Source: an uncultured Muribaculaceae bacterium (GTDB lineage: Bacteria > Pseudomonadota > Alphaproteobacteria > Rs-D84). From it: a stretch of 64,000 bases of DNA. A program made the position numbers and the translations under genes. Below are positions 2,887-51,667 of the stretch, piece by piece. The stretch lies in contig CAZPLT010000002.1 in assembly GCA_964587855.1 (NCBI GenBank), forward strand, positions 6,676 through 70,675, written 5' to 3'. The first letter of the stretch is position 1; every line of letters begins with the position of its first letter. The notes under the pieces are model-generated. The model was given only the letters and a program-made list of their open reading frames with translations. It made no database searches and was not told where the DNA came from.

Positions 2887-4527
2887 GTGTTGTCAGCCAA
2901 AGGGGTTATTATGAAATGTGCTGTATATGTGCGAAAGTCCAGTGAACGTGGGCTGGATCAAGAATTTAACAGCTTGGATAACCAAGAACAGGCGTGCCGT
3001 GCATACATCATGTCACAAACTTTTCAGGGATGGGAATATGTCAAAACATATTCGGATGCGGCCATATCCGGTGGCACAATGGCACGACCGGGACTACGCG
3101 AAATGCTGACCGATATACGTGATGGCAAAATCCAATGTGTACTGGTGTACAAAATTGATCGATTGAGCCGATCCATCTATGACTTTAAACGAATGATGAA
3201 AGAAGACTTTGAACCGCACGATTGTAATCTCGTCAGTATCACGCAATCATTCGATACATCAACCGCGATGGGCAAATTGACATTGAATATGCTGTTATCA
3301 TTCGCGGAATTTGAACGAGAGGTCGCATCGGAACGCGTTCGCGATAAAATGCGTGCTACCAAGGCCAAGGGTTTGTGGACCGGTGGAATGTTACCCCTTG
3401 GATACGATGTAGAATTTGGCAAACTGATTGTAAATACGGCAGAGGCCGCAACAGTGCGCGAAATATTCCAAACATACCTTGAATCCACATCGCTGTCCGA
3501 TTGTCGCGGGCGCCTTATCGACAAAGGTATACATGGTAAAACTTGGATGACCAAGAAAGGAAATCAGAAAGGCGGCAAGATCCTATGCGTGTCGGGAATT
3601 CAACGAATTTTAACAAATCCAGTTTATATCGGCAAAATGCCAAACCGCACAACCAAAGAGGTATTCGATGGTATTCACAAAGCTATCATGGATGAACGAT
3701 TGTTCAATGCCGTGCAAGAAAAACTGGCCAAAAATAACACGCACGGCGATGCGCCGTACACTCGCGGAACCGCGCTGTTGCATAACAAATTATATACAGC
3801 GGATGGCACGGCGTTCAAAAATAAAAAGGGTAACAAGGGACTCAAAAAATACCGATACTATCGCGCCGATAAAACATCACTGCCCGCAGGCGATATTGAA
3901 TCAATCATGACAGATACAATTAAAAGATTCCTGGATTCTGACATGGAATGTCTGTCGGAATCCGCTAAACTTGCATTCAAACAAACCGAATACAGTGACA
4001 CGATGATTCAACCAATGATTGAAAAGATTGTTTATAACCCTGGTAAGCTGACGATATTTATAAACATTGCTGACCTGTCATACCTGAGCCCATTCAAAAC
4101 CGATTGTATAAATCAGAACGCCGACCCGATGCCGATGTACATAACCGATGACGGTAAATACGCGGTCTTGGAAACGCCCGTTTATATAGCATCGCGAACA
4201 TGCATCAACCACCGATGCGATGGCGGCGAAGTATCCATACTGACCAAATCTGAAAACGCAACATTGTTAATCAAGGCGTTATCATACGGCTGGAAATACA
4301 AACAAGATTACGAAAACGGAACACCGATAACGAATATCGCAGAATCCGAAAAGCGCGACAAACGCACGATCTATAAATACCTGAACCTAGCATACTTATC
4401 CCCACGCATCATAAATAGCATCATGTCATCTGAAATTCCCGCCGACATAAACCTGCAAAACCTGTTCACCATCGCATCAAAATACGACACATTCCCAGAA
4501 CAAGAAAAGGTGTTTTATGGTCGATGA
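2887..4527 (+). mobile_element. Large serine recombinase (integrase) of an integrative element
   Basis: N-terminal resolvase catalytic domain (AVYVRKSSERG..SLDNQ, YKIDRLSRS) followed by a recombinase domain and a long C-terminal extension. It lies about 0.9 kb from the tRNA-Val 3-prime end. The true start may be the internal ATG at 2911. Confidence 0.85.
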
Positions 4528-5300
4528 TTGACCTGATTCAATCTTGTGTTATAATCCAGATTATGGAATTTATAATCGTTGTTATTTTTATACTGTTATC
4601 CGTACTGATTATTCGCAGTAATTCGCGTAATAAAAATCATGAATTTGTTTTTATAAACCGCGGGCGACATCACAGAAATCGCGAGTTGCTGGAAACGGTA
4701 ACGTCCGCAGATCGTGGCACTTGGGCTGAACGTGATTTAGTGCTGGATTTATTAAAAAATGATATCCCCGCCGGGGCAATTTTTCATGATTTATATATCC
4801 GAAAACGCAATGGAACATTCTCGCAAATAGATCTGGTTGTTGCGACCAAGGTTGGAATTATCGTTATTGAAGTAAAAGATTATGGTGGGTGGATTTTTGG
4901 AAATGCTCACAATACGCAATGGACACAAGGAATGCGTCGTGGGCAAAAGTTTCGTTTTTATAATCCGATAATGCAAAACAATAGGCATATTGAAGAACTG
5001 CGTAAACAATCTAAACAGTTCCAAAACTTGCCCATTTATTCTGTAATAGTTTTTCATGGTAGTTGCGAATTAAAAGATATTACTTTTGTACCAAAGGGAA
5101 CATTTGTTACCACTGCGCACAGGTTTTTGGACGTTATAAATACAATAACTAACGACTCTGAGCCCGCAAATTACACCGATAAAATGGAAGTTGTTAGAAT
5201 ACTGAAAGCCGCAGTTGAAAATGGTAATACGCCAGATATACAAGAACGACACGCCCAACAAGTTCAAGATATTCTCGGGAAAGACCGCGTTTTTGCATAG
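4524..5300 (+). CDS. NERD (nuclease-related domain) protein
   Basis: QIDLVVATKVGIIVIEVKDYGGWIFG matches the NERD core. The start overlaps the recombinase stop (ATGA). There is an N-terminal TM segment. Confidence 0.7.
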   Translation: MIDLIQSCVIIQIMEFIIVVIFILLSVLIIRSNSRNKNHEFVFINRGRHHRNRELLETVTSADRGTWAERDLVLDLLKNDIPAGAIFHDLYIRKRNGTFSQIDLVVATKVGIIVIEVKDYGGWIFGNAHNTQWTQGMRRGQKFRFYNPIMQNNRHIEELRKQSKQFQNLPIYSVIVFHGSCELKDITFVPKGTFVTTAHRFLDVINTITNDSEPANYTDKMEVVRILKAAVENGNTPDIQERHAQQVQDILGKDRVFA

Positions 5301-5392
5301 TAGTGACTATGCGAAAATAGCCATTGTATAGAATGTGGGATAGATTGGGTATATATGGCGGATATATCTGCTATACCATAGTCACAGCATTA

Positions 5393-5421
5393 AAAAATCC
5401 CGCGGAACTGCGGGATTTTTG
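5393..5421. terminator. Rho-independent terminator hairpin (bidirectional) between the NERD gene and tRNA-Val
   Basis: aaaaaatcccgcggaactgcgggattttt: a GC stem flanked by A and T runs. Confidence 0.7.
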
Positions 5422-5458
5422 CAAAGAAAAAGGCTGTTTATACAAACAGCCAGAGTCT

Positions 5459-5534
5459 TGGTGGATGATGAGGGACTCGAACCCCCGACCTACTGGATGT
5501 AAACCAGACGCTCTACCAACTGAGCTAATCATCC
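5459..5534 (-). tRNA. tRNA-Val (anticodon UAC)
   Basis: Cloverleaf on the minus strand: acceptor GGATGAT/ATCATCC, D-arm GCTCAGTTGGTAGAGC, anticodon loop TTTACAT, T-loop GGTTCGAGTCC, encoded CCA. Confidence 0.9.
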
Positions 5535-43798: not shown

Positions 43799-46480
43799 AT
43801 GTCTGAAATTAATGAAGTTTCCCCAGAAATCAAAGTTCCAATCAGTGTTCTTGAACAAGAAATGCGTGGCAGTTTTTTGAACTATGCAATGTCGGTTATT
43901 GTTGATCGCGCTTTGCCCGATGTTCGTGATGGTTGTAAACCTGTGCATCGTCGTATTTTGTATGTTATGAACGATGTAGCGCCTGCAACGCGTGCAACTG
44001 TAAAATGCGCCCGTATCGTTGGTGATGTTATGGGTAAATACCATCCCCATGGCGACAGCAGTATTTATGACGCGATGGTTCGTATGGGTCAGGATTTTTC
44101 TATGGGTGCATGCTTGGTCCAGGGTCAGGGAAATTTCGGCAGTATGGACGGGGATAAACCCGCCGCTATGCGTTATACCGAAGCAAGATTATCTAAACTG
44201 GGCGGGTCATTAATGGACGATATGGACAAAGATACCATTGAATGGATGCCTAATTTTGACGATACTTTGAAAGAGCCACAGGTTTTACCCGCGAAATTTC
44301 CAAATTTCTTGGTAAATGGCGGCAGTGGAATTGCGGTTGGTATGGCGACAAATGTGCCAACTTATAATTTGGGCGAGGTTTGTGATGGTGTTTTGGCTAT
44401 ATTAAACAATGCCGAAATTACAGATGAAGAATTATTTGGAATTATTCAGGGGCCAGATTTCCCAACGGGCGGGATTATGATGGGGCGTGGCGGCGCATTC
44501 AAAGCGCACACAACTGGCCGCGGCAGTGTGATTGTTCGTGCAAAAACTCATGTCGAGGATATGAAAGAAAAGCAAGCAATCATAGTTGATGAAATTCCTT
44601 ATCAAGTAAATAAAGCTCAGTTGATTATAAAAATTGTAGAGCTGTCCAAAGAAAAACGTATCGAAGGGCTTGGTGAAATTCGTGATGAAACCAGCAAAGA
44701 AGGCGTGCGTATAGTTATCGAATTAAAGCGTGATGCAATTGCTGATGTTGTTCTGAATCAATTATTTCAATACACAGAATTACAAAGCAGTTTCCCAGTA
44801 AATATGATGGCGTTAAATCATGGCCGTCCAATGTTATTTAATGTTCGTGGTGTGTTGGATGCTTTTATTGATTTTCGTATAGATGTTATTCGCCGCAGAA
44901 CTATATTTGAATTAAACAAGGCACGTAATAAAGCACATACTTTATTGGGCTTGTCAGTTGCGGTTGGAAATCTTGATGAAATTATTGCTTTGATAAAAGG
45001 CAGTGAATCGCCCGAGGCAGCACGTCAGGCATTGATATCTCGCAGTTGGAAAGCATCAGATATAGAAAGCTATATCAGATTGATTGATGATCCAAATACC
45101 GAATATGAAAATGGTATGTTCCGTATGAGCGAAGATCAAGCAAAAGCCATCTTGGAATTACAATTACATCGCTTGACCGGATTAGAACGTGAAAAAATTC
45201 ATAATGACTTGGTAGAACTTGGTGCAATTATCAAAGAATTGTTGGATATTTTGGGCAGTTACGAAAGAATTATACAAATTATTCGCGATGAAACATCTGC
45301 GGTTCGTGATAACTGGTCGGTTCCACGCAGAACAATAATTTCTGACGCCGAAGTTGATATGGATATAGAAGATTTAATAGCACGCGAAGATATGGTTGTA
45401 ACAGTTTCAAACACTGGATATATCAAACGTGTTGCGCTGGATACTTACCGCGCACAAAAACGCGGGGGTAAGGGTCGCAATGCAATGACCACCAAAGAAG
45501 ACGATTATGTATCTCAATTATTCGTTGCAAATACTCATACTCCATTGATGTTTTTCAGCAGCAAGGGTATGTGTTATCGCTTGAAAACTTATAAATTACC
45601 AGAATCGGCCGCCAGTGCCAAGGGTCGTCCATTGGTGAATTTATTACCATTGTCTGCGGGTGAAACAATCACGGCAATTTTACCAGTGCCAGAATCTGAA
45701 ACTGGAACATTTTTGATGTTCGCAACCAGCATGGGAACGATTCGCAGAAATGATTTTTCAGACTTTGAAAGCATACGTGCAAACGGAAAAATTGCGATGA
45801 AGTTGGAAGATGGCGAAAGCCTGGTCAGTGTTATGTTGTGCAATGAAAACCAAGATGTATTTTTAAGCACTTATCGTGGTCGCTGCATCAGATTCCCAGT
45901 AAATGAAATTCGCGTATTCCAAAGCAGAAATTCAACCGGTGTTCGCGCAATCAAATTGGGCAAAGACGACAAAATTATCGGTATGGCAATGCTGAATCAT
46001 TCAGACGCTGACGCGGAAACACGCGCAGCATATATCAAGCAAAGCCGCGCGCTGCGCCGCGCAGACGGAGTGGAAGAAGAAGCTGGCGACGAAGAAGAAA
46101 CAACCAGTATTGTTTTGGGCGAAGCAACGATGGCGGATATGGCGCGCGATGAACAATTTATTTTGACCATCAGTGAAAATGGATTTGGGAAACGCACCAG
46201 TTCGTATGAATATCGTTTGACCCATCGTGGCGGTTCGGGTATTACCGCAATTAAACTGGGCGGAAAAAATACAGCGGTCGCGGGCAGCTTCCCAATTGAT
46301 AATGGTCATGATATTATGATGGTGACGGACGGCGGCAAAATTATCAGAACGCCAGCGGACGCGGTTCGTATCGCGGGTCGTTCCACAGCGGGTGTAACAT
46401 TGTTAAAAACAGCTGAAAAAGAACGCGTCATCAGCACCACAGCAATTGAAAAAGAAGAAGTAATTGAAAACGAGGAATAA
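43799..46480 (+). CDS. gyrA: DNA gyrase subunit A
   Basis: 893 aa with GyrA N-terminal breakage-reunion domain (active-site region AMRYTEARL) and C-terminal beta-pinwheel repeats. Confidence 0.97.
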
Positions 46481-46484
46481 TAAT

Positions 46485-47336
46485 ATGTCAGATAATAATT
46501 CAGTAGCTTTAATAGGTAATTTTGATTCGTGTTCTCATATTGATGATGAGGTGGAATACTGGTTTGCTCGAGATTTACAAAAACTCCTTGGGTATGAAAA
46601 GTGGGATAAATTTACAAATATAATAGACAAGGCTAAATTAGCTTGTAAAAACAGTGAGTTATCAGTATTAGACCATTTTCTCCAAGTGGGGAAAATGGTT
46701 GTGATAGGTTCTAGCACTAACAGAGAGATTGAAGATTATAAATTAACAAGATATGCGTGTTATTTAATAGCACAAAATGGAGATTCTGCAAAAAGAGAGG
46801 TAGCCTTTGCTCAAACTTATTTCGCTGTTCAGACCAGGAAACAAGAGATAATTGAACAAAGAATGGCAGAATATGAGAGATTGGCGGCACGTGTAAAATT
46901 ATCTGAGACAGAGAAAGAGCTTGGTTCTTTATCATATGAGCGTGGTGTAGATAGTAGGGGGTTTGCTATTATTCGTAGTAGGGGCGATCAAGCATTATTT
47001 GGCGGATATAATACCAGCAATATGAAGCAACGGCTTGGGATAAATAATGAATCTAGGCCATTAGCGGATTTTTTACCGGCAGTTACCATAAAAGCGAAAG
47101 ATTTAGCTACAGAAATGACAAATCATAAGTTAAAAAATTCTAATTTAAGTGGTTCTGATAAAATCTCTGACGAACATGTAAAAAATAATGCTAGTGTTAG
47201 AAAAGCTCTTACAGATAGCGAAATTTACCCAGAGAAATTGCCACCAGCGGAAGATATAAAAAAAGTTGAAAGTAAAATAAAACGAGAAGAGAAACAAATA
47301 GCTTTATCAAAGACTAAAAAAATTACTAAAAACTAA
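46485..47336 (+). CDS. dinD: DNA-damage-inducible protein D homolog
   Basis: Blocks matching E. coli DinD: RYACYLIAQNGD, AQTYFAVQTRKQE, ALFGGY. The start is taken at MSDNNS. Confidence 0.75.
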   Translation: MSDNNSVALIGNFDSCSHIDDEVEYWFARDLQKLLGYEKWDKFTNIIDKAKLACKNSELSVLDHFLQVGKMVVIGSSTNREIEDYKLTRYACYLIAQNGDSAKREVAFAQTYFAVQTRKQEIIEQRMAEYERLAARVKLSETEKELGSLSYERGVDSRGFAIIRSRGDQALFGGYNTSNMKQRLGINNESRPLADFLPAVTIKAKDLATEMTNHKLKNSNLSGSDKISDEHVKNNASVRKALTDSEIYPEKLPPAEDIKKVESKIKREEKQIALSKTKKITKN

Positions 47337-47388
47337 GTTATATTATATGATTTTAATTTATTAAACACATAGAAACTTAAGGCGTAAT

Positions 47389-47625
47389 ATGTATGAAATA
47401 ATAAAAGATAAAGAATCGGGGCTTTATAGGATAATCAGTGAAATAGAACCACTTGATAAAGAAAACGAAGAGGTGGTTTTATTAAATTCTATGCCCAAAG
47501 CAAGTGTTGTTTCCTTAATTTCGGACGAATTTCGCACGATGATAGATTCTGGATTATGTGATGAAAATTATCGGGATTTTAAGGATAAAATAAGTTTTAT
47601 AAAAACGATAACTTTGGATTTATAA
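47389..47625 (+). CDS. Hypothetical 78-aa protein
   Basis: ORF between dinD and the DpnI-like gene; no similarity recognised. Confidence 0.4.
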   Translation: MYEIIKDKESGLYRIISEIEPLDKENEEVVLLNSMPKASVVSLISDEFRTMIDSGLCDENYRDFKDKISFIKTITLDL

Positions 47626-47626
47626 A

Positions 47627-48397
47627 ATGGAGATAATACCAAGTTTTGATTTAAGTATGGCATGTTGTTACAAAAGCGAATCACAAAAAATTCGGGTTAT
47701 GTCGGAACATTGGGTAAAAGAAAATGCGTTTTGCCCAAATTGCGGTGAAATATTAGAAAAATATCAAAATAATAAACCTGTTGCGGATTTCTTTTGCCCT
47801 AATTGTGGTGAAGATTATGAGTTAAAAAGTAAATCAGGCACATTCGGCGTAAAAGTTTTAGATGGCGCATATAATACTATGATAGAAAGAATAAATAGTA
47901 TTAAGAATCCGAACTTTATGATTATGAATTATTCAGAGTGTTCTATTAGAAATTTTATGGTAATTCCAAAACATTTTTTTACAGATGATATAATAGAAAA
48001 AAGAAAGCCATTATCAGATACTGCACGCAGAGCAGGATGGATTGGTTGTAATATCTTGCTAAATAAAATCCCAAATAGCGGAAAAGTATTTTTTATTAAA
48101 GATTCTGAATTTATTGGAAAAACTGAAATTATAACGGAATATAATAAGGTCAAATTTCTTCAAAATGAATATCAAAAGAAAAGGGGCTGGTTAATAGATA
48201 TTATTGGATTTATAGAAAAACTCAATCAAAAGACATTCAAACTATAAGATATGTATAAATTTGAAAAGGAATTGTATTTAAAACATCCATCTAATAACAA
48301 TATAAAACCTAAAATTAGGCAACAATTACAATATTTAAGAGATAAGGGATATTTGACATTTGATGGCAATGGAACTTATACTACGATAAATAACTAG
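47627..48397 (+). pseudogene. dpnI: DpnI-like methyl-directed restriction endonuclease gene, interrupted by an in-frame TAA at 48245-48247
   Basis: Residues 1-206 align with DpnI (YKSESQKIRVMSEHWV..FCPNCGE, KPVADFFCPNCGEDYELKSKSG, DGAYNTMIERI, RKPLSDTARRAGWIGCNIL). The next 49 codons in the same frame encode the DpnI C-terminal winged-helix segment (DMYKFEKEL..IRQQLQYLRDKGYLTFDGNG). A TAA stop sits where DpnI has Glu. Confidence 0.8.
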
Positions 48398-48407
48398 GGT
48401 AAATGAA

Positions 48408-48791
48408 ATGAATACGGCATTTTTATCTATTAACGATGTATCAAAGCAATTGGATATTCCAGCGCATACTTTGCGCTATTGGGAAAAACAATTTCCAGTT
48501 TCTATAAAGCCCGCAACTGGCGCGGGGGGACGTCGCTATTATCGCCCTGAAACGGTTGCTGCGCTGAAACAGGTTCGCGCTTTGCTGTATGATCGCGGCA
48601 TGACCATTGCTGGTGTTAAAAAGTTAATAAAAGATGGTCAGTTTCTGAATACTGAAATAAACATTTCGGTTGAAAAACCAGTTGGCTTAGCCAAGCCATC
48701 AAAACAAGCCCCAGGGCTGTTTACAAACAGCGCTAATATAGATAAAGCCATAGATTTGCTGGAACAGGCGCGAGCAACCTTGAATTCTTGA
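48408..48791 (+). CDS. MerR family transcriptional regulator
   Basis: N-terminal MerR HTH (LSINDVSKQLDIPAHTLRYWEKQ). Confidence 0.8.
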   Translation: MNTAFLSINDVSKQLDIPAHTLRYWEKQFPVSIKPATGAGGRRYYRPETVAALKQVRALLYDRGMTIAGVKKLIKDGQFLNTEINISVEKPVGLAKPSKQAPGLFTNSANIDKAIDLLEQARATLNS

Positions 48792-48881
48792 ATAATAAAG
48801 CCCGGTTGGGCTTTTTATTTTCCAATTTATTTTATTGTAAATAGTTTTTTTGGGTATAGAATTGTCGGACAAAGGAAAAAA

Positions 48882-49586
48882 ATGAAATCAATTGAAAAAA
48901 TAAGCATTCTGGGGGACTCGATTTCCAAGGGTGTTATATTGGACACTCTTTCGAAAAAATACAAAATATTAAAAGAATCCGCAGCCGATTTATTCAGCAG
49001 CGAAAATAACGTGATTGTAAAAAACTATGCAAAGTTTGGCTGCACCAGTGAAAAAGCGTTGGGGTTGATTGCTGATATAGTAAAAGAAGAAAACAAGCAT
49101 GAAATTATCCTGATAGAATTGGGCGGAAATGATTGTGATTACAAATGGGACGAAGTTGCAAAAGACCCAGAGGCAAATCATCGTCCAAATGTGGAATTAG
49201 AAGACTTTAGATTAAATATTGCCAAGATTATTGAAATTGTAAAGACCAGTGGGCGTGATTTGGCGTTTATGACGTTGCCACCAATTGACGCACAAAAATA
49301 CTTTAATTGGATTACGCGCGGCGATCCGGAAAGAGCCAAAAATATTCTGCGTTTTATAGGTGAAGTAAATTATATTTATCGGCATCAAGAATTATATGCC
49401 ACAGCATTGGAAGAAATTGCAACCCAGAACAAGGTATATAAAATTCCGGTTCGGGCAGGATTCTTGGCAATTCCAAAATATGGCGATTATATTTGTGATG
49501 ATGGAATTCATTTGAATGAGCAAGGTCAAGAAGTAATGAAAAATATATTCAATGATACATATAACAAGTATATAAGTAAAAAATAA
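48882..49586 (+). CDS. SGNH/GDSL hydrolase family protein
   Basis: GDSIS block (ISILGDSISKGV) and downstream SGNH conserved residues. Confidence 0.75.
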   Translation: MKSIEKISILGDSISKGVILDTLSKKYKILKESAADLFSSENNVIVKNYAKFGCTSEKALGLIADIVKEENKHEIILIELGGNDCDYKWDEVAKDPEANHRPNVELEDFRLNIAKIIEIVKTSGRDLAFMTLPPIDAQKYFNWITRGDPERAKNILRFIGEVNYIYRHQELYATALEEIATQNKVYKIPVRAGFLAIPKYGDYICDDGIHLNEQGQEVMKNIFNDTYNKYISKK

Positions 49587-49587
49587 T

Positions 49588-49614
49588 AAAAACCCGCATA
49601 TGCGGGTTTTTTTA
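49588..49614. terminator. Bidirectional rho-independent terminator
   Basis: aaaaacccgcatatgcgggttttttt. Confidence 0.75.
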
Positions 49615-49615
49615 T

Positions 49616-49974
49616 TTACATAACATGAGAAGATAATTTATTTCTTAGTATTGCCATTTCACGATATTTGTCTTCAGTAAAAAGTATGTTCCAAAAAATA
49701 TTTGTTTTTGTATTTTCTGAACAATTTTGATGTTTTTTTATCAATTCTAATAAAGGAGGAACATTTATATTTTGTTCGGCTAAGGTACCAAGTTCATTAT
49801 CTGACATAAACGGATTTTTCGCCAATCCCATTAAAATTTCATAATTAGTAGAGCCTAAAAAAGTTAAACGTTGCTCTTTGTCCGCGGTTGTCATTGCTTG
49901 TTCTTTCAAATCCTTATATAAAGGATTTCCTTTGTTATTCTTATTAATACTACAATTAAGAATACTACTCATTT
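49616..49974 (-). CDS. Hypothetical protein
   Basis: ORF from the track (149 aa). The start is more plausibly the internal Met (MSSILNCS). No similarity recognised. Confidence 0.4.
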
Positions 49975-50580
49975 TTTTCACCTTTGATTTGTATCGGTCC
50001 TTTTTGGTCAAAAACAAAGGCCGAAGAATATAAATAGTAGAATAGACAAAGCTAACTTTCAACAAATTTATAAATTTGTCGAAAAATCGTTTAAAATCAA
50101 TTAAATAAAATGAAATTTATAAACCAATGTGGCAGAAAAAGACTCGTCTGTGCAATCTATAAGTGGGGAAGGTTGGTTTGTATTCATTTTTTTTGATCGC
50201 ATACGAAAGTTACAAAGATAAATCTTGGTAAAAATTATAGCCCAAATATAAAGAATATTCCTTTTCAGAAATTTTCTTTTTATATGTATCCCCAGGATAT
50301 GGCGTGCTGTAAAAAGTCCTTAGATCTTCGAATCCAACCCCAATATAAAAATTAGTATATTTTGAATGGTAAGTATAACTGGCAGAATAACCCAGCAAGT
50401 TTTTATCTTGATACGATTGCTCGGTATCATAGTATTTGTATAAAGGCATAAATTTCAGAATATGTCTTTTATATAAATATAATCTAATCTCTCTCCTTTT
50501 TTCCAGTTGTAATTATACATTAATTTTTAATATAAAGAAATTGATTTATTTCCTAGAACAAAAGGCAGATTAAAAAGTTT

Positions 50581-50655
50581 TGGCAGTCCCAACGGGAATC
50601 GAACCCGTGTTTTCAGAATGAGAATCTGGCGTCCTGACCGCTAGACGATGGGACC
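50581..50655 (-). tRNA. tRNA-Glu-like, apparent anticodon CUC, with C27-A43 mismatch in the anticodon stem
   Basis: Minus-strand cloverleaf GGTCCCATCGTCTAGCGGTCAGGAC..anticodon loop TTCTCAT..GGGTTCGATTCCCGTTGGGACTGCCA. The D-arm is tRNA-Glu-like. Confidence 0.7.
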
Positions 50656-50743
50656 ATTCAGCAGGCTTTTACCAGCTTATAATGAAAACCTGGTGTTTTC
50701 AAGAATAATTATAAAAAAATCGCACCCAAACAGGTGCGCAAAT

Positions 50744-50919
50744 TTTTTGGTTGGGCCACACGGGCTGTAATTCCCAACGCTTCGCTTTTGGGCCCCTTTC
50801 GTGTCGTAAGGCTCAAACTTAGTAAGACTCGTTTTCGCCAACTATCCACTCCGAACCGCGCGGTTCTGTCTTCCGCAAAACTCAACCAAAATAAAAACGC
50901 CACAAGGGCGTTTTAATTT
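50744..50919 (-). ncRNA. Candidate small RNA or integration scar. A roughly 170-nt minus-strand segment is bounded by two terminator hairpins and ends in a tRNA-like 3-prime end (…GCCCGTGTGGCCCAACCA) that duplicates the tRNA-Gln 3-prime end
   Basis: Terminator hairpins at 50896-50917 (aaaacgcccttgtggcgttttt) and 50709-50745 (aaaaaatttgcgcacctgtttgggtgcgattttttt). The 19-bp direct repeat ttttggttgggccacacgg occurs at 50744-50762 and 50917-50935. No ORF of 60 aa or more on the minus strand. Confidence 0.35.
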
Positions 50920-50993
50920 TGGTTGGGCCACACGGATTCGAACCGCGATAAAGAGAACCAAAATCTCTTGTCCTACCGTTAGACGACGCCCCA
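50920..50993 (-). tRNA. tRNA-Gln (anticodon UUG)
   Basis: Minus-strand TGGGGCGTCGTCTAACGGTAGGAC..stem AGAGA/TCTCT with loop TTTTGGT..GGTTCGAATCC..TGGCCCA A CCA. U1-A72 is typical of bacterial tRNA-Gln. There is one G-G mismatch in the acceptor stem. Confidence 0.75.
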
Positions 50994-51046
50994 AAAGCTT
51001 CAAAATTATAACTAACTAATATAAAAAATCAATAGAAAATAATTAT

Positions 51047-51667
51047 CTACAAATGATGCGTTAATAAGCTTGTATGAAATGCTCCCATTTGTTTTTTAAA
51101 CTCTGTTAGCATTTTTTTGTAATTTTGTTCTGTTGATTCAATTATTGTTCTGCTGTTATTTGTTATAATATCCATACGAAAATCATTTACTCTTGAAACA
51201 GCCGTAATATTATGCGTTTTTTCTAAATTTTCAGAAGCTCCTTCTAGAACAACACAAAGCTTTTGTATCTCTTGAATAGTTTTTAAAACGTTTTGGGTGA
51301 TAAGCTCCGCACCTATGCTGCCACCGTATTCACGAATATCATAAAATCTTTCACAAAACGCATATGTTTCCTTAATAGCAGTTTTATAAGTAGGCTGGAC
51401 AAGTTCCTTGACACCTTGTAATAATACAGGATCTTGTTTGTGAAGTATCATGTTTGAATTCACTTGCTTTGCTGATACTAATGCTGTATTCATTTTTTCG
51501 GCATCTGATTTTATCAGATCCAGCATATTTGATTCTTTTTTGTAAAGTCCAGTTGATGAAAAACGTAATAAAAAATTGATTATAGTTTTATAATCAGAGT
51601 GATATCTGCCATTAATATTTTTAAGTAGAGTCATCAGAATATCCTTTTTGGCTATTCTCTCTTCCAT
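51047..51667 (-). CDS. Hypothetical protein
   Basis: 206-aa ORF; no similarity recognised. Its start overlaps the end of the upstream IMPase-like gene. Confidence 0.5.
   Translation of the reverse strand: MEERIAKKDILMTLLKNINGRYHSDYKTIINFLLRFSSTGLYKKESNMLDLIKSDAEKMNTALVSAKQVNSNMILHKQDPVLLQGVKELVQPTYKTAIKETYAFCERFYDIREYGGSIGAELITQNVLKTIQEIQKLCVVLEGASENLEKTHNITAVSRVNDFRMDIITNNSRTIIESTEQNYKKMLTEFKKQMGAFHTSLLTHHL

Follow-up and report, generated by a model that had tools for sequence, protein, structure and literature searches.

CIMEs, known from the Streptococcus ICE literature, are cis-mobilizable, att-flanked elements that lack recombination and transfer genes; the described examples span kilobases and plainly derive from known ICEs by deletion. 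The 3'ETS-leuZ of E. coli is a small RNA derived from a tRNA trailer. In tycheposon islands, partial tRNAs are left behind by successive integrations (bioRxiv 10.1101/2020.12.28.424599). The tycheposons of Prochlorococcus are flanked by full-length and partial tRNAs, with older elements pushed outward and degenerate remnants accompanied by extra partial tRNAs, and they carry tyrosine recombinases as well as cargo genes (bioRxiv 10.1101/2020.12.28.424599).

The locus described here lies in a 64,000-nucleotide stretch of DNA, the whole of which is referred to as the window. Judged by a SuhB-like inositol-monophosphatase gene that flanks the locus, the window comes from an uncultured alphaproteobacterium akin to Candidatus Enterousia. 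Behind the tRNA-Gln(UUG) gene is a short non-coding segment that ends in a second copy of the tRNA 3' end. The reading preferred here, which is given an even chance of being correct, is that of a miniature, integrase-less, att-flanked module, acquired and lost through recombination at the 3' ends of tRNA genes. The family that such modules would form is undescribed, and its function and mobility remain putative.

The 19-mer TTTTGGTTGGGCCACACGG occurs exactly twice in the window, at 50745-50763 and 50917-50935 (window-wide BLAST E=2.3e-4). The direct repeat reported in the original prediction is therefore real, with its first copy one base off from the 50744-50762 given there. Read on the minus strand, the 19-mer comprises the T-stem 3' strand, the acceptor 3' strand, the discriminator and the CCA of tRNA-Gln(UUG), followed by AAA; that is, the last 16 nt of the tRNA and three trailer bases. 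The earlier assignment of the repeat to the tRNA-Gln 3' end is thereby borne out, the gene itself being confirmed at 50920-50993. One repeat unit measures approximately 172 bp, and the 153-bp insert between the two copies consists of a terminator hairpin and approximately 120 nt of GC-richer non-coding sequence (48% GC in the insert versus 38% in the window). Each copy of the 19-mer is followed on the minus strand by an intrinsic-terminator-like hairpin, as had been noticed previously; these run from 50914 to 50894 and from 50738 to 50721, with a T run after each, and the scan that detected them returned four such sites where 0.8 were expected. The first, hairpin A, extends to a 19-bp inverted repeat (50883-50901 and 50907-50925) that takes in the last 9 nt of tRNA-Gln, and this first hairpin of the module appears to serve as the terminator of the tRNA gene. 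The features of the locus, in the order in which they are met on the minus strand and in window coordinates, are as follows.

51005 to 51032, minus strand: tRNA-Gln promoter, sigma-70-like (TTGATT, 16 nt, TATAAT), scored 10/12.
50920 to 50993, minus strand: chimeric tRNA-Gln(UUG) gene, found by ARAGORN and Rfam, with its mismatch flagged in the cmscan alignment.
50917 to 50935, minus strand: direct repeat copy 1, the tRNA-Gln 3' end (CCGTGTGGCCCAACCA) plus AAA; exact repeat.
50883 to 50925, minus strand: hairpin A, with a 19-bp stem in which the last 9 nt of the tRNA, CAACCAAAA, pair with TTTTGGTTG; its core is the putative tRNA-Gln intrinsic terminator.
50858 to 50882, minus strand: X-left, a conserved flank, AGTTTTGCGGAAGACAGAACCGCGC, that runs into the T-arm-5'-like word GGTTCG; kept in relatives.
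50791 to 50857, minus strand: core-1, 67 nt, predicted to fold on the tRNA-sense strand into an irregular hairpin made up of five short helices, its apical loop being variable.
50764 to 50790, minus strand: linker and T-arm-like hairpin (TTGGG-AATTACAG-CCCG) with a conserved TTACA.
50745 to 50763, minus strand: direct repeat copy 2, a tRNA-Gln 3' fragment of the B type that runs on into the native trailer; exact repeat, and matched by the junction of relatives.
50713 to 50739, minus strand: terminator B, the native tRNA-Gln terminator in "empty" relatives (terminator scan; L001 and L021).
50581 to 50655, minus strand: tRNA-Glu(CUC), the conserved downstream neighbour, outside the module, which serves as a locus marker (tRNA finding; relatives).
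50709 to 50903, minus strand: open reading frame of 64 aa with a GTG start, overlapping the segment.
50734 to 50916, plus strand: open reading frame of 60 aa with a GTG start, overlapping the segment.

The putative unit is composed of a terminator hairpin, the left flank, the 67-nt core, the T-arm-like hairpin and a copy of the tRNA 3' end. The GTTGGG of the linker is complementary to the CCCAAC of the repeat that follows it. The GC-rich stretches that were originally proposed to pair fare poorly across relatives: the palindrome CCGCGCGG is not conserved, reading AAGCGAGG in the related contig L022, and GGGGCCC varies, reading GGGACCC in the same-species contigs L012 and L016 and GGGACCT in L022.

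A comparison of the tRNA-Gln locus across related genomes, as the original prediction had proposed, finds the segment in some relatives and a one-copy junction in two others. In L001, the closest genome in the collection (SuhB 93% identical at the amino acid level), the homolog of terminator B lies directly behind tRNA-Gln, with tRNA-Glu following 93 nt later, and the difference from the window at this locus is exactly one 172-bp repeat unit. The same empty junction, with exactly one repeat copy, is present in L021 (SuhB 90%). The tRNA-terminator junction of both genomes is the junction found in the window between repeat copy 2 and terminator B. With tRNA-end repeats on the one hand and this one-copy junction on the other, the suggestion of an att-type duplication at the tRNA-Gln 3' end holds in kind.

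Within the species, the module is carried by two independent Logan unitigs, L012 and L016, and because these show the same structure an assembly artefact is excluded. The samples with carriers are SRR27197524, SRR27197537, SRR8925824 and SRR10769903. The flanks of L012 match those of the window with 0 mismatches in approximately 1.3 kb, and those of L016 with 7 mismatches in approximately 5.1 kb. The 153-bp insert differs within the species by three to four substitutions, a diversity far above that of the flanks, and the loop of terminator B differs by 4 nt between the window and L012/L016. That loop reads TGTTT in the window (50727-50732) versus CAAAT in L012 and L016, and the loop of the first terminator reads CTTGT in the window (50902-50906) versus its exact reverse complement, ACAAG, in L022. 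These inversion-like changes in both terminator hairpins suggest template switching at the hairpins.

Further relatives carry the module in part, in whole or with another core. In L031 (SuhB 88%), a tRNA-Gln of the B type defined below is followed by hairpin A and the left flank as in the window, and the contig ends there. L025 (SuhB 87%) and L026/L027 (78%) retain hairpin A and the left flank up to GGTTCG, which then lead into a different core of approximately 80 nt, followed by CCGTG and a terminator and then by tRNA-Glu; the core of L025 and L026 is barely alignable to core-1. The sequence of hairpin A is identical in L025, L026 and L031, and a similar hairpin stands behind the native A-type tRNA of L028. 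X-left is kept in L022, L025, L026 and L031, although the core that follows it can differ. L022 holds the whole unit at 84-88% identity, beside a flanking gene of approximately 73% nucleotide identity. There the module is situated approximately 650 nt farther from the tRNA, behind an extra insert with a 125-aa open reading frame; a relic, CAACCAAAA, stands in front of it, suggestive of tandem accretion, and it ends in a divergent tRNA-Gln-like fragment, CCGTGCACCCCAATCA. The approximately 650-nt piece between tRNA-Gln and module (979-1636 of L022), whose 125-aa product has no Pfam, PHROG or phage match, is bounded by short repeats of the CAACCAAA type, which gives it the look of another small insert at this site.

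The module is also associated with a second tRNA. In L006, an Enterousia MAG, a homologous core lies directly behind tRNA-Glu (nhmmer E=6e-10; cmsearch 104 bits); this module ends in a tRNA-Glu-like fragment, and a perfect 40-nt repeat spans the end of tRNA-Glu and the terminator. In the counterpart of the linker, TTGGC is complementary to the tRNA-Glu end GCCAA. Across copies, the flanking repeat varies from 8-9 to approximately 40 bp; it measures 19 bp in the window and 40 bp in L006, and in L022 it extends, mismatches included, over approximately 29 bp. No other copy was found by nhmmer or with covariance model R1 in the 64-kb window or in approximately 200 kb of related loci.

Together, these comparisons point to a small module family in Enterousia-like Alphaproteobacteria, whose members are always found immediately downstream of a tRNA gene, each closing with a copy of that tRNA's own 3' end, Gln-type behind tRNA-Gln and Glu-type behind tRNA-Glu. 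Because it is carried by same-species contigs and by distant relatives, occurs with alternative cores within the same flanks, and has a Glu-type copy in L006, the module is, on this comparison, a recurrent unit and not a randomly decayed island. Given how widely such units occur across the clade, the module could be ancestral there, and the "empty" sites of L001 and L021 would then be deletions between repeats and not the ancestral state.

The tRNA-Gln gene of the window is itself a chimera. Two acceptor types occur among the contigs: the A type, with the 5' strand TGGGGCG and the 3' strand CGCTCCA, in L016 and L028 (and a related variant in L023), and the B type, with TGGGCCA and TGGCCCA, in L001, L021, L022, L025, L026 and L031. 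In the window, an A-type 5' strand, TGGGGCG, is combined with a B-type 3' strand, TGGCCCA, which results in a G5·G68 mismatch; the same chimera recurs in the independent sample L012. Its Rfam tRNA score of 49.4 bits is 7-9 bits lower than those of the A type (56.1) and the B type (58.4), the parental alleles being intact in L016/L028 (A) and L001/L026 (B). In L016, the tRNA is fully A-type, with the matched CGCTCCA, and the downstream fragment is B-type, such that the repeat agrees at only 16 of 19 positions. It thus appears that the repeat of the window overwrote the tRNA's own 3' acceptor strand, and that the sister contig L016 keeps the matched allele. The simplest account would be that the downstream fragment converted the tRNA 3' end by gene conversion, or that an alternative crossover point was used. 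Either would make the perfect 19-bp identity a secondary product, which the 16/19 repeat of L016 indicates as well.

The exchange of alleles extends upstream of the gene. L010, a contig of the same species, matches the window without a difference over 3.3 kb upstream and switches abruptly at approximately 51022; from there to tRNA position 7 it shows nine differences and a 2-nt indel, with a B-type promoter spacer and 5' strand. L026 combines an A-like promoter spacer with a B-type tRNA. The tRNA-Gln locus is a recombination mosaic. The idea that the insertion brought in a foreign tRNA allele together with its promoter was dropped on account of this combination in L026, and it is also countered by L025, L026 and L031, where a B-type tRNA is followed by the same hairpin. 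Separately, the Logan unitigs L010, L011 and L017 of this species end inside the tRNA-Gln body (window 50948-50957), which would fit co-existing alleles or occupancy states in those samples. A mirror image of the 3'-side arrangement of the window is seen on the 5' side in L030 (JGI 3300042603 Ga0466714_075829), where three partial tRNA-Gln 5' ends, in the region 3950-4404, lie upstream of the intact gene; these copies, TGGGGTGTCG[C/T]C with promoter-like flanks, are each followed by a GC-rich, partly palindromic insert.

Under the preferred reading, the module would now be a non-autonomous cassette. Recombination between its repeats would delete it precisely and leave one copy, the endpoint seen in L001 and L021, and excision would be expected to yield an empty-site junction, ...GGTTCGAATCCGTGTGGCCCAACCAAAAAATTTGCGC, and circle junctions of the form ...ATTACAGC-CCGTGTGGCCCAACCAAAA-TTAAAACGCC. 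Recombination with relatives could swap both core and tRNA allele, for which the resulting mosaic is seen, and gene conversion between the repeats could rewrite the acceptor 3' strand of the functional tRNA, which is chimeric in the window and L012 and not in L016. Excision or mobilisation would presumably be carried out by a recombinase acting in trans or by host recombination. Such a cassette is consistent with the tRNA-specific flanking repeats, the one-copy sites, the stacking in L022, the swapping of cores within fixed flanks, the raised diversity of the insert within the species and its higher GC content. As in att scars, direct repeats of a tRNA 3' end are accompanied by an intact tRNA at one end (in the window, L022 and L006), and the unoccupied site of L001 and L021 holds one repeat copy; as in CIMEs, att-type repeats stand at the ends and recombination genes are absent. 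MITEs were ruled out, the ends being direct and not inverted repeats and the flanking repeats varying between 19, approximately 29 and 40 bp.

Several observations weigh against a cassette. An integrase gene or pseudogene, which would be expected of an att scar, is absent in or beside the element; no integrase was found in or near any copy of the module, and neighbouring open reading frames are devoid of integrase domains. Of the window open reading frames checked, only one proved to encode a recombinase, a large serine recombinase situated 46 kb off, at 2887-4527. Viral contigs scanned for exact patterns, an insensitive form of matching, yielded neither a parent element nor a free attP; the patterns comprised words from the core, the 19-mer, the two junctions, the end of the A-type tRNA and a core pattern with gaps. 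A BLAST search of phage and plasmid records with three module variants and the 125-aa open reading frame of L022 gave only one weak 25-nt plasmid match (E=0.4), and a metagenome scan with a 20-mer only a chance match in the GC-rich contig L015. In addition, repeat length is far from constant among copies, hairpin and left flank are near-identical across lineages in which SuhB is only 78% identical, and the core has an RNA-like fold, with G·U pairs, on the tRNA-sense strand only. A selected RNA would account for this conservation of hairpin and left flank, and for the sense-only fold, no less well than a DNA scar.

The principal alternative, which is considered possible but rather unlikely, sees the module as a structured non-coding RNA housed in the 3' trailer of tRNA-Gln or tRNA-Glu and produced by read-through or processing of the tRNA transcript. 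Its 3' end would mimic the T-arm and acceptor end of the cognate tRNA for tRNA-processing or tRNA-binding factors, and the flanking repeat would belong to the design of the RNA and be only secondarily a substrate for recombination. The 67-nt five-helix hairpin (50791-50857) is the single-sequence minimum free energy fold in the window, L012, L022 and L006, whereas the antisense strand has no consistent fold. When the fold of L022 is imposed on L006, 17 of 18 pairs are kept, with two double and two wobble changes; residues of the stems and internal loops are invariant and the apical loop is variable. Genomes that agree at approximately 73% of nucleotides in the flanking gene share 84-88% identity in the core, and the complementary segments of linker and tRNA end track the tRNA type (GTTGGG/CCCAAC for Gln, TTGGC/GCCAA for Glu). 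All pair cells are standard pairs, of which only one is compensatory, and the covariation is not significant: with only approximately three effective sequences, 94 of 500 shuffles reach the observed score. Folding z-scores are likewise unremarkable, being +0.3 (window) and +1.1 (L022) for the whole unit and -0.7 to 0.0 for the hairpin alone, with the exception of L006 (-2.15). The core is replaced in L025 and L026, and the close relatives L001 and L021 lack the module altogether.

The form of this idea put forward in the original prediction, a stand-alone RNA with a tRNA-like CCA end, is weak. There is no promoter-like site upstream of the segment on the minus strand, and a strong terminator lies directly upstream of it. 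The CCA is not conserved either, being AUCA in L022, with the acceptor part absent from L025 and L026, and no Rfam family matches any variant. A further reading, judged distinctly unlikely, would see in the module an as yet undescribed kind of selfish or semi-domesticated structured RNA of approximately 120-170 nt on tRNA 3' ends, co-transcribed with the tRNA and copying the cognate T-arm and acceptor tail, whose protein-less DNA would spread between tRNA genes (Gln, Glu) and lineages by means of tRNA-derived homology.

It is highly unlikely that the segment is a tRNA-Gln gene duplicated in tandem and then decayed, for instance a second isoacceptor gene since lost, with a degenerated 5' half and insertions, of which only the last 19 nt can still be recognised. 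Such an origin could draw on words colinear with the tRNA, namely ATTTTGGTT (anticodon loop), CGCGGTTCG (T-stem 5' strand and start of the T-loop) and the 19-mer, and on a weak T-arm-like similarity just upstream of repeat copy 2. Local alignment to the tRNA outside the 19-mer was judged not significant against shuffles (core p=0.33; left flank p=0.015, the latter because its 9-mer is the hairpin's complement of the tRNA end). No second tRNA was found by ARAGORN with introns allowed and the threshold lowered with -ps, where the matches at ps80 were implausible, or by the Rfam tRNA model at E<=10. A core behind tRNA-Glu with a Glu-type end, as in L006, is inexplicable by local duplication of tRNA-Gln. 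A related notion, that the core had been inserted into the T-loop belonging to a second copy of the tRNA, was set aside: T-arm-like words do flank the core, and the similarity to tRNA is not significant.

The remnant of one large island or prophage that integrated in tRNA-Gln and was randomly whittled to approximately 170 bp, which was the more specific part of the att reading first proposed, is very doubtful. The att-like repeat, the empty site in relatives and a nearby mobile-looking islet with Bro-N and DpnI-like genes downstream of tRNA-Glu could be cited for it. Random decay, however, would not leave the same unit of approximately 120-170 bp in several contexts, including a different tRNA, and at least three independent contexts hold the compact unit without an island; viral contigs, phage records and plasmid records yielded no parent element whose ends match.

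The surroundings of the locus show some turnover of their own. The approximately 4.1 kb downstream of tRNA-Glu (window 46464-50575) is without a counterpart in L001; L026 has the MerR and GDSL-lipase genes of that stretch but lacks the Bro-N, 78-aa and DpnI-like genes (46464-48400), which look like a small inserted restriction or phage-derived islet beside gyrA. Between suhB and tRNA-Gln, a 206-aa open reading frame (51047-51667) has no Pfam domain and is 43-54% identical in relatives whose adjacent SuhB is 83-90% identical; it would thus be unusually fast-evolving or replaced. At 2887-5534, the large serine recombinase (546 aa, Resolvase and Recombinase domains) and a NERD-domain protein lie beside tRNA-Val(tac) (5459-5534), of which no repeat was found within 6 kb.

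A known RNA gene, such as a two-piece tmRNA, SRP RNA or 6S RNA, or an assembly artefact, is given next to no probability: the host belongs to a group with permuted tmRNA genes and the segment ends in a tRNA-like CCA, but ARAGORN in tmRNA mode found no tmRNA, Rfam 15, including the tmRNA_permuted and SRP families, gave nothing credible at E<=10, the end has tRNA-Gln identity (U1-A72 type) and not G3·U70, no tag open reading frame is conserved, and the unit is dispensable in L001 and L021. The Rfam searches, run both at gathering and at E<=10 on the window and five relatives, assigned no known RNA family to the segment. Inside it, the highest-scoring match, to a microRNA model, reaches 24.6 bits where the gathering score is 70, and covers the hairpin only. 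The prior rejection of two-piece tmRNA and SRP RNA is upheld by these results, and the Rfam/Infernal check suggested with it has the same outcome. Group II intron domain V, a K-turn and T-box-like pairing with NCCA were dismissed by eye, as was an integron attC, since GTTRRRY/RYYYAAC-like words in the hairpin occur at chance frequency. Protein coding was rejected too. The two GTG-start frames listed above contradict the statement that the segment has no open reading frame of 60 aa or more, though neither is conserved, stop codons interrupting both in the homologous segment of L022. A search of 5.8 billion proteins with the six frames concatenated into a pseudo-protein gave no match, and an exact look-up of the 64-aa product returned no record.

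If the preferred reading is correct, tiny protein-less cassettes can be left behind by integration-type recombination at tRNA genes or can make use of it; in reduced alphaproteobacterial genomes they would persist, exchange their cores and pass from one tRNA gene to another, and island finders that seek integrases would miss the whole class. There would be a concrete cost as well, in that the leftover fragment has apparently made the acceptor stem of what is possibly the only tRNA-Gln(UUG) gene a mismatched chimera, with natural "before" and "after" alleles of the tRNA coexisting in one species. If the RNA reading is correct instead, the module would represent a new tRNA-linked RNA family.

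Among described systems, the alphaproteobacterial two-piece (permuted) tmRNA shares with the module its host class and the succession of a structured segment, a T-arm-like hairpin, an acceptor 3' strand and CCA. The module differs in the Gln or Glu, and not Ala, identity of its acceptor, in having no tag frame, in escaping detection by ARAGORN and Rfam, and in being dispensable. Like small RNAs of the 3'ETS-leuZ type, it is non-coding, lies in a tRNA 3' external spacer and could be released by processing; unlike them, it has a terminator between tRNA and segment, is flanked by tRNA-end repeats, is polymorphic in its presence and is known here from DNA alone. It resembles the partial-tRNA remnants of tycheposons, on a far smaller scale and with neither recombinase nor cargo genes. 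With attL/attR scars of the 3'-end class, as left by P4-like integrases and genomic islands, it has in common that direct repeats, 16-20 bp long, pair an intact tRNA gene on one side with a 3' tRNA fragment on the other, that relatives show a one-copy empty site and that, in L022, a second insert is stacked at the same tRNA. It departs from them in having no integrase or cargo, in its compact size of approximately 150-180 bp at two different tRNAs, and in repeats that range from approximately 9 to 40 bp. As CIMEs are, the module is att-flanked and without an integrase, but it is approximately 100 times smaller and no parent element is known. In kind, the module would belong with tRNA att scars and CIME-like elements.
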